Shown here: piece by piece, positions 5,305-15,460 of the stretch | Numbering within the stretch: the first letter of the stretch is position 1 | How the letters are laid out: each line of letters opens with the position of its first letter | DNA from: Calditrichaceae bacterium | Lineage (GTDB): Bacteria; Calditrichota; Calditrichia; Calditrichales; JBFXGD01 | Direction of reading: 5' to 3' | Assembly: GCA_050173015.1 (NCBI GenBank) | Contig: JBFXLE010000012.1 | Location: 32,001-96,000, forward strand | DNA length: 64,000 bases | Position numbers and translations under genes: made by a program | Notes under the pieces: model-generated | Database searches by the model: none | Seen by the model: only the letters and a program-made list of their open reading frames with translations | What the model was told of the DNA's origin: nothing

Positions 5305-6930
5305 TTAATACATACCACCCATACCGCCTGGAGGCATATCAGGAGGAGCAGGATTCTCCTCGGGTTTGTCTGTGATCAATGCTTCGGTCATGAGGAGCAG
5401 GCCGGCGACAGATGACGCGTTTTCGAGCGCGCTCCTTGTCACTTTTGTCGGGTCAATCACCCCTGCTTCAAGAAGATCCTCATAGATTTCAGTCGCGGCA
5501 TTAAATCCGTATGCATCTTTGCCTTCTTTTACTTTTTGAACAACTACGGATCCTTCCAGGCCCGCGTTGTTAACGATCTGCCGAATTGGCTCCTCAAGGG
5601 CGCGTCTTACAATATCAATACCGATTTTTTGATCACCCTTTGCTTTTAAAGAATCAAGAGCGCCAATGGAACGAAGGAGAGCGACACCGCCACCCGGAAC
5701 AATGCCTTCATCAACAGCGGCGCGTGTCGCATGAAGCGCGTCCTCAACCCGGGCTTTCTTTTCTTTCATCTCGATTTCTGTCGCAGCGCCGATCTTTATC
5801 ACGGCGACACCACCCGCGAGTTTAGCCAGTCGTTCCTGTAATTTCTCCCGGTCATAATCGCTCGTTGTGTTTTCGATCTGAGCGCGGATTTGAGAAACCC
5901 GTCCCTTGATATCACTGCTTTTGCCGGCCCCTTCGACGATCGTAGTGTTTTCCTTGTCAATGTTAATTTTTTTAGCTTTTCCGAGATCCTCTAAAGTCGC
6001 GTTTTCCAGTTTAAACCCTGTTTCTTCGCTGATAACTTTTCCGCCGGTCAAAATAGCGATATCATCAAGCATGGCCTTCCGGCGATCGCCAAATCCCGGT
6101 GCTTTTACTGCTGCTACTTTAAGGGTGCCTCTAAGTTTATTAACCACTAAAGTGGCCAGCGCTTCCCCCTCAACATCCTCAGCGATAATCAGTAAAGGTT
6201 TCCCGGTCTGCGCGGCTTTTTCAAGCACCGGCAGGAGATCTTTCATTGTACTGATTTTTTTATCGTAAATCAGAATCAGCGCGTCTTCGAGATGTGCCTC
6301 CATTGTTTCGGAATCAGTGACGAAGTAAGGTGAACTATAACCACGGTCAAATTGCATACCTTCAACAACATCCAGAGAAGTTTCTATAGATTTTGCTTCT
6401 TCGACCGTTATCACACCATCCTTGCCTACTTTGTCCATCGCGTCCGCGATAAGGTCACCAATGGTGGGATCATTATTGGCGGAAATTGTGCCAACCTGGG
6501 CAACTTCTTTTTTTCCGGAAACATCTCTGGACATCGTTTTCAAATGCTCGATCACTTTTTTGACAGCGAGATCGATTCCGCGTTTCAATTCCGCGGGATT
6601 GGCCCCCGCGGTTACATTTTTTAGACCTTCATTAAAAATGGCCTGTGCCAGAACCGTCGCTGTGGTTGTGCCGTCACCAGCGACATCGCTGGTTTTTGAT
6701 GCCACTTCTTTAACCATTTGAGCGCCCATGTTTTCAAAAGGATCAGCAAGTTCGATTTCTTTAGCAACGGTTACACCATCCTTTGTAATGGTTGGGGCGC
6801 CAAATTTTTTGTCTATTACGACATTACGGCCTTTTGGTCCCAACGTGATTTTTACCGCCTTGGCCAGGGTATCCACGCCACGCTTGAGTTTTACCCGCGC
6901 TTCAACATCATATTCAATTAATTTAGACAT
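5305..6930 (-). CDS. groL: Chaperonin GroEL
   Basis: [27 protein letters not shown] tail. Confidence 0.99.
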
Positions 6931-6956
6931 AAATCAACCTCTTATTTATGAAGTTA

Positions 6957-7244
6957 CTATTTTAAAATTGCCAATAAATCATTTTCGTTCAAAATCAGAT
7001 AATCCTGCTTGTCCATTTTGAAGTCGGTTCCTGAATATTTACCGTATAAAACTATATCTCCCTTTTGGACATCCATGGGAATTCGTTTTCCGTCATCTGT
7101 CACGCGACCGGGACCAGCGGCAATGACTTCGCCGCGCATTGGTTTTTGCTTTGCGGTGTCCGGAACAATAATTCCTGTGGCGGTTTTTTCCTCTTCAGGA
7201 AGCGGTTTAACCAGGACTCTGTCAGACAGGGGTTTTAAATTCAT
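6957..7244 (-). CDS. groS: Co-chaperonin GroES
   Basis: [30 protein letters not shown]; adjacent to groEL. Confidence 0.97.
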
Positions 7245-7326
7245 TTGTTCCTCCTAAATTGGTGATTTAATATATTTGATCTATAAGACTTATTTAGTTA
7301 TCGAGCTCAGGAATATCCCGAAAGAT

Positions 7327-7767
7327 TTAAGTGATTTTTATTTCAATTTCCTTTGATCTTGATTTTGATGATTTTGGTATTGTGATAGTCAAAATACCAT
7401 TTTCAAAATCAGCGCTGATTTTATCAGCGTTGACTTCATCGGGAATCTCAATAGATCGGTAAAATTTTCCGTAAGCGCATTCATAGCGAAGAAATACCGC
7501 TGATTTAATATCTTTTCCTGTTTTTTCACCGCTGATAATAAGCATGTTTTTCTGGAATGTGATTCTTACGTCATTTTTACTGACGCCGGGGAGTTCCGCG
7601 GAGACGATGAAACTGTGATCGCTTTCCTCCAAATTGATTCTGGGATTGACATCTGACCGTGCTTCATGTCTTTCAGACTCAGTGCCTGCAAGATCATTAA
7701 AAAGGCGGTCCAGATCATCTTTTAAAGAAAAAATGCTTCTGCCGGGTGTCCATCGTGCGAATGCCAT
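7327..7767 (-). CDS. Hsp20/alpha-crystallin small heat shock protein
   Basis: AELPGV and ADFENGILTITIPK motifs. Confidence 0.93.
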   Translation of the reverse strand: MAFARWTPGRSIFSLKDDLDRLFNDLAGTESERHEARSDVNPRINLEESDHSFIVSAELPGVSKNDVRITFQKNMLIISGEKTGKDIKSAVFLRYECAYGKFYRSIEIPDEVNADKISADFENGILTITIPKSSKSRSKEIEIKIT

Positions 7768-9994: not shown

Positions 9995-10264
9995 GTGAAT
10001 ATTAAGCCATTGGATGATCGTATTCTGATCGAACAGGTAGAAGAAGAAGTTCAAAAAGTAGGTTCAATTATCATACCTGACTCTGCCAAAGAAAAACCGC
10101 GTATGGGCAAAGTTGTCGCTGTAGGAACTGATGAAGATTTAAAGGAACTTGTAAAAGTAGGTGATACGGTTCTTTACTCAAAATATTCCGGTGATGAGAT
10201 AAAAGTAGAAAACAGAGAGTACTTAATTGTACAACGCAGTGATGTGTTAGCTATCGTCGGATAA
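9995..10264 (+). CDS. groS: Second, stand-alone co-chaperonin GroES
   Basis: [32 protein letters not shown]; no groEL downstream. Confidence 0.92.
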
Positions 10265-12585: not shown

Positions 12586-13812
12586 CTATCTCGTCAGAGC
12601 CGGATTGTGAAGGATATAGCCGTTTGAATCCATCCGGTATTTTCTCTTCAGTTCCAGCGTATCGGCCGGAAGAAGCGCCATAAATCCGAATCTCTCCCTG
12701 ATATCGTCAATTGCTGTATTAAGAGCCTCCATGCGCGTTTTTTCATCAAACAGATAAGACTGAAATCCACAAGGCTCGACTTGTCCCGCGGTGACTCCCA
12801 CATGGCGTATGCGTATCCTGCGAAAGCGGATTTCTTCAAAAATACGGCTGACGGCGATGAACAGATCCTTTCCGTCATCTGATGGATGAGTCAGGCTCAG
12901 GCTCCGGGCATGGCGGGTGAAATCGGAATAGCCGATTTTTACCGTCAACATTCGGCAAACCAGATCCTGTTCCCGTAATTTTTTCGCGATCCGTTCCGTA
13001 AGATATTGAAGAGTTCCCTTTACAATTGACATATCAGATGTGTCTTCTTCAAAACTTGTTTCCCTGCTCAATTGTCGCGGAATTATACGAATTTTTACTT
13101 CCCGGTCATCGATGCCGTTCGCGAGCTCCCACATTTTGATGCCGTTTTTTCCGAATAGTTGCTCAAGGATTAGTTTTGACAGGCGCGCCAAGCTTCCAAC
13201 GGTAAAAATGTGTAAATCGGTCAGTTTCTCTTTGGTCATCCTGCCGATGCCGGGTAAAACATCAACAGGCAGACCGTTTAAAAATTCATTCTCCTTATCA
13301 AAAGGAATTTGCGCGATCCCCCGTGGTTTATTCAGGCCGGATGCAATACGCGCAATGGTTTTCGTGCTGCCGATACCTACGGACAGGCCCACTCCCACTT
13401 TTTGCCAGACTTCTTCGGTAATATTTTTGGCTATTTGTATCGGCGCCGGATGCAGATGCAATGTCCCCGTTAAGTCAAGATACGCGTCATCCAGAGATGT
13501 AAATTCAACTAAGGGTGTGTATTTTAGATAGACATTATGAAAAACTTCAGAAACAGCGCGGTAGTGGTCATAATTGCCTTTCAGAAATACGGCATTCGGG
13601 CAGATGCCTTTTGCTCGCGTAAGTGGCATACCGGTGCGGATACCGTGGGCGCGGGCTTCGTAGCTGGCAGTATGCACGACGCCGCGTTGATCTGCCCTTC
13701 CGCCGACAATAACGGGTCTGTCGCGTAAAAGTGGATTAAATCCCTGTTCGACCGACGCGAAAAAGGCGTCCGCGTCAATATGCATTATGGTGCGATGCTG
13801 TCTTTTTATCAT
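12586..13812 (-). CDS. dinB: Y-family DNA polymerase (DinB/Pol IV-like)
   Basis: HIDADAFFASVE, SYEAR, SLDDAYLD, LPGIG; QSYLF clamp-like motif. Confidence 0.93.
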   Translation of the reverse strand: MIKRQHRTIMHIDADAFFASVEQGFNPLLRDRPVIVGGRADQRGVVHTASYEARAHGIRTGMPLTRAKGICPNAVFLKGNYDHYRAVSEVFHNVYLKYTPLVEFTSLDDAYLDLTGTLHLHPAPIQIAKNITEEVWQKVGVGLSVGIGSTKTIARIASGLNKPRGIAQIPFDKENEFLNGLPVDVLPGIGRMTKEKLTDLHIFTVGSLARLSKLILEQLFGKNGIKMWELANGIDDREVKIRIIPRQLSRETSFEEDTSDMSIVKGTLQYLTERIAKKLREQDLVCRMLTVKIGYSDFTRHARSLSLTHPSDDGKDLFIAVSRIFEEIRFRRIRIRHVGVTAGQVEPCGFQSYLFDEKTRMEALNTAIDDIRERFGFMALLPADTLELKRKYRMDSNGYILHNPALTR

Positions 13813-13849: not shown

Positions 13850-14104
13850 TCACCCCTGTAAACAGACGCGGGCAATTTGCCATTCAAGGCTGGAATCTTC
13901 AAAAAGTAATTCAAAATAGTCGGAACTGTCGGCGATAATGGAAAAATGGTATTGTTTGTTGTGCCCCTGGTGACTGACCCAATGACCATTGAGTTGATTG
14001 ATTTTGTAAACCCGGCCATTCCATTTGAAGCGCAGCGGTTTCATCTGTCCTTCCTTAAAATAGCCTATTACCTCAATGGGCTCGAAAATATCCTCAAAAA
14101 TCAT
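13850..14104 (-). CDS. Small beta-rich protein, DUF6504-like, upstream of dinB
   Basis: PLRFKWNGRVYKI...W...FELLFE...W pattern; lies between an SOS-type promoter and dinB. Confidence 0.7.
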   Translation of the reverse strand: MIFEDIFEPIEVIGYFKEGQMKPLRFKWNGRVYKINQLNGHWVSHQGHNKQYHFSIIADSSDYFELLFEDSSLEWQIARVCLQG

Positions 14105-14138: not shown

Positions 14139-14152
14139 TGTACAAACGTACA
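14139..14152. promoter_or_regulatory. Putative LexA operator TGTAC-AAAC-GTACA
   Basis: Inverted repeat 4 bp downstream of the -10 of the small-gene/dinB promoter; same motif occurs upstream of lexA. Confidence 0.8.
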
Positions 14153-14306: not shown

Positions 14307-14759
14307 TCAAAGTTCTCTGATGACAGTGACAACTTTGCCGATAAGTTCAAAGTCAGGAGTGCGCGGATCGACAATGAGAGGAGATACGGAGGCATCGGCT
14401 GTTTCAAGCCGGATGAGATGCTTGTCATAATATATTTTCCGGACGTAAATGCGGTGTCCCAGCTTGATGACGCCGATATCGCCATTGTGAAGCTGAGGAG
14501 TCAGGTTGACCGTAAGAAAATCACCGGAAAGAATGCCCGCATTGGAAAGTCCGTTGTCAATGGCTTTAAGCGTGATGGATCTTGTATCGTTTTCCTTAAA
14601 ATTACTGATGATCTCACCAATATTATAATTCCCGTTGGTATGAAAGTTATTCTCCATGCGAACTTCGCCAAGAAGCGGGATATTATAAAATTCAGAGTTA
14701 AGACCGGAATCTTCGGCCCGATATACACCTTTCAAGATAAATAAATCCCTTTTGTTCAT
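14307..14759 (-). CDS. LexA/UmuD S24 peptidase-like protein lacking HTH, catalytically degenerate
   Basis: Aligns by eye to the C-domain of the neighbouring LexA: IPLLGEV/VPLIGRV, NGLSNAGILSGD/DSMINAGILEDD, VRKI/VKRL, LIGKVVTVIRE/IQGRVIGLIRE. Confidence 0.75.
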   Translation of the reverse strand: MNKRDLFILKGVYRAEDSGLNSEFYNIPLLGEVRMENNFHTNGNYNIGEIISNFKENDTRSITLKAIDNGLSNAGILSGDFLTVNLTPQLHNGDIGVIKLGHRIYVRKIYYDKHLIRLETADASVSPLIVDPRTPDFELIGKVVTVIREL

Positions 14760-14810: not shown

Positions 14811-15428
14811 TTAATGTACCATCTCCCGGATGAGACCGATGACCCGACCTTGAATTGACCAGTCGCTCTGCGGGTATATATCACTGTATCCGGGATTTTC
14901 AGCCTTCAGAAATGGCTTCCCCGTATCGGTGATCAGCCTTTTTACCGTGACTTCATCTTCAATAAGGGCCACTACGATATCTTTGTTGGCGGCTGTATTG
15001 CATGACTGCACCACAACCAGATCATCTTCCAAAATTCCGGCGTTTATCATACTGTCGCCGCGCACTTTTAAGGCAAAATACCGGCCTTCCAGTTTGATCA
15101 TCGCTCTTGGGATGGGTATATAACGCTCGACATTTTCCTGGGCAAGAATCGGGAAACCCGCCGCAACACGGCCAATCAGTGGCACATCCACATCGGTACC
15201 GGAATTCGGAGCATATTCCGGATCAATAATTTTCAAAGTGCGCGCGGATGAATCCTTTTCCAGGTAACCCTTAGCGATGAGCGCGTCAATATGCTTCAAG
15301 ATGGCGTATTTTGATTTGATCTTAAGGGTATCCGCCAGCTCCTGATAAGTGGGCGCGTATCCTTTTTCTTCAATATGGCGGGCAATTAACCGCAGAATTT
15401 CTTTCTGCCTGTCAGTAAGTCCTTTCAT
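14811..15428 (-). CDS. lexA: SOS repressor LexA
   Basis: LTDRQKEIL wHTH, VAAG cleavage site, GDSM (catalytic Ser), TVKR (catalytic Lys); ATG at 15428 follows an AAGGGGG RBS. Confidence 0.96.
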   Translation of the reverse strand: MKGLTDRQKEILRLIARHIEEKGYAPTYQELADTLKIKSKYAILKHIDALIAKGYLEKDSSARTLKIIDPEYAPNSGTDVDVPLIGRVAAGFPILAQENVERYIPIPRAMIKLEGRYFALKVRGDSMINAGILEDDLVVVQSCNTAANKDIVVALIEDEVTVKRLITDTGKPFLKAENPGYSDIYPQSDWSIQGRVIGLIREMVH

Positions 15429-15446: not shown

Positions 15447-15460
15447 TGTACTAAAGTACA
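15447..15460. promoter_or_regulatory. Putative LexA operator TGTAC-TAAA-GTACA
   Basis: Inverted repeat between the -10 and the RBS of lexA. Confidence 0.82.

Follow-up and report, generated by a model that had tools for sequence, protein, structure and literature searches.

What might a LexA-like protein that carries neither a DNA-binding domain nor a protease active site do beside an intact lexA gene? Control of the SOS response is usually taught as a two-protein switch composed of RecA* and LexA, and the question is raised by a locus of a Calditrichaceae bacterium (assembly GCA_050173015.1, contig JBFXLE010000012.1), of which we analyzed a window of 64,000 nucleotides. An unbroken reading frame of 150 aa on the minus strand (14307..14759) encodes an HTH-less, catalytically dead paralogue of the LexA C-terminal domain, here called X. 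A preliminary description made from the sequence had placed X between lexA and a Y-family polymerase and offered three roles for it: a partner of LexA in heterodimers, a competitor for RecA*, or a cleavage-independent, UmuD'-like polymerase subunit.

Results

Identity and fold

An alternative start, a TTG at codon 9, would yield 142 aa, as in the Atlas record; the closest relative, P0002, is also 142 aa long. In a Pfam scan X matched Peptidase_S24 (PF00717; 41.5 bits against a cut-off of 23.3) and no HTH family, neither PF01726 nor any other, whereas the neighbouring LexA matches both PF00717 and PF01726, and the intact frame without a DNA-binding domain that had been described is thus confirmed. 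In the alignment of orthologues, about 22 unconserved residues lie ahead of the S24 domain. X scored below the cut-offs of both the LexA model (TIGR00498; 51 bits, cut-off 111) and the UmuD model (NF007621; 23 bits, cut-off 110), and it gave no match to HumD (NF051876) at E up to 1. An AlphaFold2 model built on a 64-sequence alignment has pLDDT >90 at residues 61–150; the N-terminal 60 residues have a pLDDT of ∼45 in this monomer model despite their sequence conservation. When the model was searched with Foldseek, LexA C-terminal domains ranked first (rmsd ∼2 Å over ∼90 columns), and phage 186 CI was among the matches (E 0.02). X has the S24/LexA C-terminal fold without the HTH, and it and LexA are the only S24 proteins in this genome. 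No fusion of X to LexA or to a polymerase was present among 8000 candidates of 276–2000 aa, which is a weak test.

Cleavage site and catalytic dyad

BLASTP aligns X with the neighbouring LexA at 26% over 152 columns, and a profile-profile alignment of the two (probability 98%) has a register that agrees with that of phmmer to 1JHF. The register first proposed is the same in all of these alignments: the Ala-Gly cleavage site GRVAAG of LexA becomes GEVRME in X, the catalytic Ser is replaced (GDSM to DNGL; Ser126 to Gly70, codon 14550–14552), as is the catalytic Lys (VKRL to VRKI; Lys163 to Arg107, codon 14439–14441), and the C-terminal IGKVVTVIRE is retained. Among 70 aligned orthologues of X, the Lys position is Arg in every one, the Ala-Gly site occurs in none, and the Ser at the catalytic position is kept in 7 and gone in 63; the adjacent LexA proteins have the Ala-Gly, the Ser and the Lys in 69 of 69. 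A shifted register that would restore the dyad was rejected (Ser72 of X is Ser in 21/70 orthologues and Lys108 is Lys in 32/70), and the claim of a dead dyad stands.

Asp68 (68/70) and Arg107 (70/70) both flank the former active site, which a salt bridge between them may plug. Residue 120 (window ∼14400–14402), on a strand near the former active site with its invariant or near-invariant Asp68 and Arg107, is Thr, Cys or Ser in 63/70 orthologues; there may be a repurposed pocket here. A search of representative proteins also found S24 domains with a Lys-to-Arg replacement in proteins unrelated to X, and dead S24 domains per se are therefore not unique to X. P0068, P0072, P0076 and P0102, long matches in that search without X's motifs, are large unrelated proteins with two or three tandem S24 domains fused to other domains; in the first three, the tandem domains keep the Ser and have the Lys replaced by Arg.

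Distribution, selection and phylogeny

A word-indexed search returned 42 relatives of X of 139–157 aa among 51 candidates, the named sources being Calditrichota, and 14 genome loci with X relatives were all assigned to this phylum. Within it, X was matched in 74 of 86 genomes, and in 49 of the 53 good ones (≥90% complete, ≤5% contaminated). We took 75 regions from Calditrichota genomes, of which 72 contain an X orthologue and 70 an orthologue long enough to align; a fragment at a contig end (G034), a frameshifted copy (G069) and a second match in G064, which is a true UmuD, were left out of the set. Open frames of X occur in seven Calditrichota families. When 1.84 billion representatives were searched with a profile, 21 matched at E up to 1e-30, every one of them carrying X's motifs, after which the matches dropped to ordinary LexA; the Atlas holds a matching cluster of 98 members in which Calditrichota is the commonest phylum. 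The search for mobile elements carrying X gave no phage match, and two ‘plasmid’ records matched ordinary lexA only.

Among the 2145 pairs possible in 66 genomes, 55 with X identity >62% were used to estimate dN/dS: the ten closest gave 0.025–0.127, and no pair with a computable dS exceeded 0.33. In most pairs the value for X is ∼2–3 times that for LexA; X evolves faster. Phylum-wide orthologues, purifying selection and a Lys-to-Arg replacement without exception bear out the earlier designation of X as a pseudoprotease of the SOS locus. In a FastTree phylogeny of 107 sequences, drawn from 33 of the genomes and supplemented with sequences from outside, X and its distant representatives form one long-branched group that falls outside the Calditrichota LexA clade; the branches are long, the alignment has 122 columns and most deep supports are <0.95, so that this tree does not fix the origin of X. 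Tree distances of X and LexA correlate (rho 0.86), as vertical co-inheritance or shared ancestry alone would also produce. We conclude that X is an ancient pseudoprotease under purifying selection, phylum-wide in Calditrichota and tied to lexA.

Gene neighbourhood

The lexA gene (14811..15428, minus strand) is canonical, with an HTH, Ala90-Gly91, Ser126 and Lys163 (TIGR00498, 203 bits against the cut-off of 111), and its stop lies 51 bp ahead of X. On the other side of X is a stand-alone 84-aa frame (13850..14104, minus strand), which a sub-cut-off Pfam match to DUF6504 (E 3e-4) and its context suggest to be ImuB-C-like, and then a Y-family polymerase of the DinB/Pol IV type (polY; 12586..13812, minus strand; NF002677, 314 bits, over the cut-off), for which the UmuC model gave 117 bits against a cut-off of 431. 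The placement of X between lexA and a polymerase thus needs amending: X does follow lexA, but it does not adjoin polY, the ImuB-C-like frame and a second SOS-like box intervening. PolY has a RecA-NT-like motif, labelled by eye against the description in PMC6511836; in it and its orthologues the second catalytic motif is SLDD, as against the usual SIDE of the other DinB in the genome set, and the orthologues end in a conserved tail, GYILHNPALTR. Farther along the window are groEL and groES, accompanied by a small heat-shock gene, and close by there is another groES-like gene (5305–7767 and 9995–10264).

Of the 72 loci, 70 have lexA upstream of X and in the same orientation, the remaining two being cut by contig ends, and 9 of 11 metagenome loci contain X, again with lexA upstream on the same strand in all nine. 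The synteny proposed as a check holds for lexA and less so for the polymerase: imuB-C is downstream of X in 40/72 loci and a polY orthologue in 27/72 (some loci are short), with none in family f7. In that family (L037, L040, L043, L048, L033, L034, L039) the gene after X is often, by eye, an AlkA-type glycosylase of ∼300 aa that replaces imuB-C-polY, and in G056 it is by eye a Tag-like glycosylase. In two genomes, G032 and G033, an insertion of 1.57 kb separates lexA from X (L083:5162–6739 in G032); its two genes, of 276 and 250 aa, appear by eye to encode a three-Cys-motif partner protein and a DUF5131-like radical SAM protein.

Presence and absence were scored with single-protein queries on draft genomes in which kin are not independent. 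Fourteen genomes have no X match or a partial one: nine have no lexA match, one has a UmuD-like protein only, three have a lexA cut by a contig end and one (G069) has lexA with the frameshifted X. Those without a lexA match include G001 (96% complete) and the single-contig G082, both of which keep an accessory DnaE. A polY orthologue is missing from 11 of the 49 good X-bearing genomes, including the single-contig G064 (hand count, with absence taken as a best match of <40% identity, against >50% for orthologues), and in G053, G058, G059, G062 and G064, all X-bearing and without polY, we found no ImuB-C match and no accessory-DnaE orthologue; ImuB-C was matched in 63 of the 86 Calditrichota genomes. 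G043 (fragmented, 6% contaminated) has a polY orthologue with no lexA or X found. X follows lexA, not the polymerase, and X and lexA are missing together.

A predicted SOS box and regulon

The palindrome TGTAC-N4-GTACA, which we predict to be the Calditrichota SOS box, occurs twice in the window, upstream of lexA (15447..15460) and between X and imuB-C (14139..14152). Counting sites with at most two mismatches, 60 of the 67 lexA genes that could be scored have one in the preceding 150 bp, and one is present ahead of imuB-C in 21 of the 40 cases that could be scored; in the 70 regions upstream of X no site was better than three mismatches. The candidate consensus is GTGTAC-N4-GTACA(T/C), and it shifts towards GTGAAC-N4-GT(T/A)(C/T)AC in families f6–f8. 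Because boxes precede lexA and imuB-C and none precedes X, lexA and X probably form one operon with lexA first, and the arrangement suggests that imuB-C-polY is a separate LexA-controlled unit; scans for sigma-70 promoters and terminators found about as many as chance would give (6 vs 4.9 and 2 vs 1.3, respectively).

With a matrix derived from 38 other genomes, the top four sites in this genome belong to lexA (the highest), a second dnaE, an unexplained site and imuB-C. The number of sites genome-wide was not above that obtained with permuted matrices (11 vs 11–26 for scores >13; 4 vs 1–5 for scores >17), so the case for the box rests on position and cross-genome conservation; recA was not among the box matches in this genome. 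A candidate site lies at G000:C16:57932, and the second DnaE (L136:262–3450, G000:C16), directly preceded by a perfect SOS-like box, is likely a DnaE2-type partner of ImuB-C and PolY. One of the top four sites, C16:81433, is beside a mobile-element-like region and no SOS gene. L137:1389–3915 (G000:C16) is a small mobile-element-like region (by eye primase-like, AAA ATPase and terminase-small-like genes) with a near-perfect SOS-like palindrome and a short tandem repeat. The predicted Calditrichota regulon is small, comprising lexA-X, imuB-C-polY, the accessory dnaE and perhaps an SbcD/Mre11-like nuclease.

Surfaces and predicted complex

LexA dimerizes through antiparallel beta-11 strands and a hydrophobic cluster, according to PMC11787620. 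Residues of X that match this surface are largely kept: V146 is aliphatic in 68/70 orthologues, R148 is Arg in 65/70, I47 is aliphatic in 68/70 and G75 is Gly in 62/70, and I147, also at a beta-11 dimer position, is largely conserved. However, the central Gly of beta-11, present in 66/69 LexA proteins, has in most cases given way to Gln, Thr, Ser or Met in X, and the dimer interfaces of X and LexA are therefore not identical. Several residues are invariant or near-invariant in X and absent from LexA (F24, N53, D68 and T134-P135-x-F137); such a pattern may mean that they serve another partner.

ESMFold2 gave X with the LexA C-terminal domain an ipSAE of 0.54, the best of three controls reaching 0.00, with at least 59% of contacts shared between runs and a partner pLDDT of at least 67. 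The mark applied is reached by 116 of 157 solved complexes and by 2 of 215 mismatches; at scores ≤0.60 there are only 18 solved complexes and both mismatches. The score lends the pairing weak support, and it may reflect likeness to, or memory of, the solved LexA homodimer.

Discussion

Of the three mechanisms first put forward, heterodimerization with LexA fits best, because of the linkage to lexA, the co-loss, the conserved dimer strand and the weak complex prediction. We therefore give an even chance to X being an uncleavable, DNA-blind partner that heterodimerizes with LexA and tunes repression. In this reading X and LexA would be made from the same autoregulated transcript and pair through the conserved C-terminal beta-11 surface of X; the resulting heterodimer would carry one DNA-binding domain for a palindromic operator, and X would most likely be an anti-repressor built into the system, permanently mimicking the C-terminal fragment of LexA that cleavage releases. 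RecA* would be unable to cut X, so that the X:LexA ratio would increase after damage, and the raised ratio would lower the threshold for, or lengthen, induction of lexA-X, imuB-C-polY and the accessory dnaE. Since the heterodimer would have a single HTH and X would outlast the cleavage that removes LexA, we lean modestly towards an anti-repressor over a stabilizing or co-repressor role. A tentative extension, which we take to be possible but on balance doubtful, is that X, by poisoning LexA dimers and building up once RecA* has driven cleavage, creates an SOS circuit of the microProtein type with a threshold or memory.

Several observations point away from the heterodimer. X might lie next to lexA for no other reason than that the lexA promoter makes its expression damage-inducible, the kept dimer strand is equally consistent with an X homodimer, and the non-identical beta-11 interface, the X-specific motifs, the insertion in G032 and G033 and, as a weak test, the lack of a LexA-X fusion among longer proteins all count against it. 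X might instead be a LexA-linked SOS effector that forms a homodimer or docks on the LexA dimer or some other partner via F24/P28, N53, D68-R107 and TPxF; its part would be that of a co-repressor or scaffold, comparable to gp7 and DdrR. The residues invariant in X and absent from LexA would then have a use, as would an N-terminal segment that is conserved though modelled at low confidence, and unrelated co-repressors of LexA do exist (PMC9700832 and PMC11332147); but this requires an extra surface or partner for which there is no evidence here, and the genes downstream of X vary by family (imuB-C-polY, or by eye a glycosylase in f7). We regard it as rather unlikely.

An uncleavable decoy that fills the groove of RecA* and damps or ends LexA cleavage would also suit a protein in a damage-inducible position whose fold is common to the RecA* binders LexA, UmuD and lambda CI. 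In PMC9926225, RecA* is described as holding LexA by an F203 pocket (F111, L113, V153) and by an acidic patch, D150-D151-E152, which faces RecA K232/R243/K245, and combined charge reversals at D150/D151/E152 strongly impaired RecA-mediated cleavage of LexA. The patch is lost in X: the Asp150 position is Gly in 68/70 orthologues, the Asp151 position is acidic in only 39/70, and the Glu152 position is Arg or Lys in 62/70, compared with Glu in 67/69 of the adjacent LexA proteins. The core positions of the F203 pocket are still mostly hydrophobic in X, the loop-derived ones having diverged in families f6–f8; but the pocket is said to form only in the cleavable conformation (bioRxiv 10.1101/2023.10.30.564768), and X has lost the loop and the AENP motif of that conformation. 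The charge reversal at the Glu152 position weakens the proposed competition for RecA*, rather than excluding it, as the same preprint, by Cory, reports that charged LexA-RecA contacts are individually dispensable; we consider a decoy improbable. A cleavage-independent, UmuD'-like subunit of a PolY-ImuB-C-DnaE mutasome seems to us quite improbable. X resembles UmuD' in size and architecture, imuB-C and polY orthologues are its downstream neighbours in part of the loci, and PolY, like UmuC, has a conserved C-terminal tail. Against this, X persists in genomes without polY, ImuB-C and accessory DnaE and belongs to a different predicted transcription unit, imuB-C-polY having its own box, and the idea is weakened accordingly. 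Moreover, X scores better with the LexA than with the UmuD model and does not match HumD, the polymerase is of the DinB type and not UmuC, G043 has a polY orthologue where no lexA or X was found, and the PolY-ImuB-C-DnaE2 modules, as far as the accessible published descriptions go, need no S24 subunit. Finally, X could be a functionless, decaying lexA duplicate, or a protease whose dyad has been mis-aligned. The frameshifted copy in G069 (a 62%-complete genome), the faster evolution of X and the Ser kept in 7 of 70 orthologues would agree with this; open frames in seven families, dN/dS ≤0.33, a Lys replaced in all 70 and a single X clade outside the Calditrichota LexA clade do not. The decaying duplicate was rejected because of phylum-wide conservation and purifying selection, and we find explanations of this kind scarcely credible.

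A dead paralogue that stays beside lexA throughout a phylum suggests that the SOS response has a third core component, itself derived from LexA. The hypothesis of a LexA-X heterodimer could be put to a direct test with the two proteins, both small and soluble, and the predicted operator TGTAC-N4-GTACA; for Calditrichota the analysis also yields a candidate SOS box together with a small regulon. If X weakens LexA dimers or blocks their cleavage, efforts to modulate SOS induction would have a template from nature, and the evolution of pseudoenzymes in the control of bacterial genes a clear example; if the dimer-poisoning reading is true, the textbook negative-feedback switch becomes a threshold or memory circuit.

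Comparison with known systems

X resembles the LexA C-terminal domain (PF00717, TIGR00498) in its S24 fold, its beta-11 dimer strand and its position in an SOS locus. Unlike LexA, it lacks the HTH, the Ala-Gly site and the dyad, has the RecA-facing Glu reversed and invariant motifs of its own, and always accompanies an intact LexA. Phage HumD is a naturally pre-shortened UmuD', and with UmuD, UmuD' and HumD X shares the form of an S24 protein of ∼140–150 aa without a DNA-binding domain, encoded in an SOS locus near a Y-family polymerase; in contrast to these, X is closer to LexA, has no dyad, is linked to lexA rather than umuC and is kept in the absence of the polymerase. The S24-fold domain of phage 186 CI is non-cleavable, and this protein is like X in having the fold without protease activity, but it keeps its DNA-binding domains and is itself a repressor. 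Id proteins and microProteins are dominant-negative, truncated transcription factors with a dimerization domain and no DNA binding; the likeness of Id proteins to X lies in this architecture, Id proteins being eukaryotic and of the bHLH type.

Full-text searches of mostly non-subscription papers, directed at a LexA paralogue of this kind or at LexA in Calditrichota, listed no description of X. Operons of lexA-imuB-C-polY are described (PMC6511836), as are DnaE2-PolY-ImuB-C-RecA modules (PMC6511836, PMC12926913 and PMC3765255), and what they have in common with the X locus is lexA, a stand-alone ImuB-C, a PolY bearing RecA-NT and a box-preceded second DnaE elsewhere; the available portions of these papers mention no dead LexA paralogue, whereas here X is inserted after lexA. 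The accessory co-repressors of LexA, GIL01 gp7 and Acinetobacter DdrR, are lineage-restricted proteins (PMC9700832, PMC11332147) that tune the SOS repressor by direct contact, which is the role proposed for X; they are small co-repressors of other origin, whereas X is a chromosomal LexA paralogue kept across a phylum. By its features X belongs to neither LexA nor UmuD/HumD, and it may work like a LexA accessory factor.
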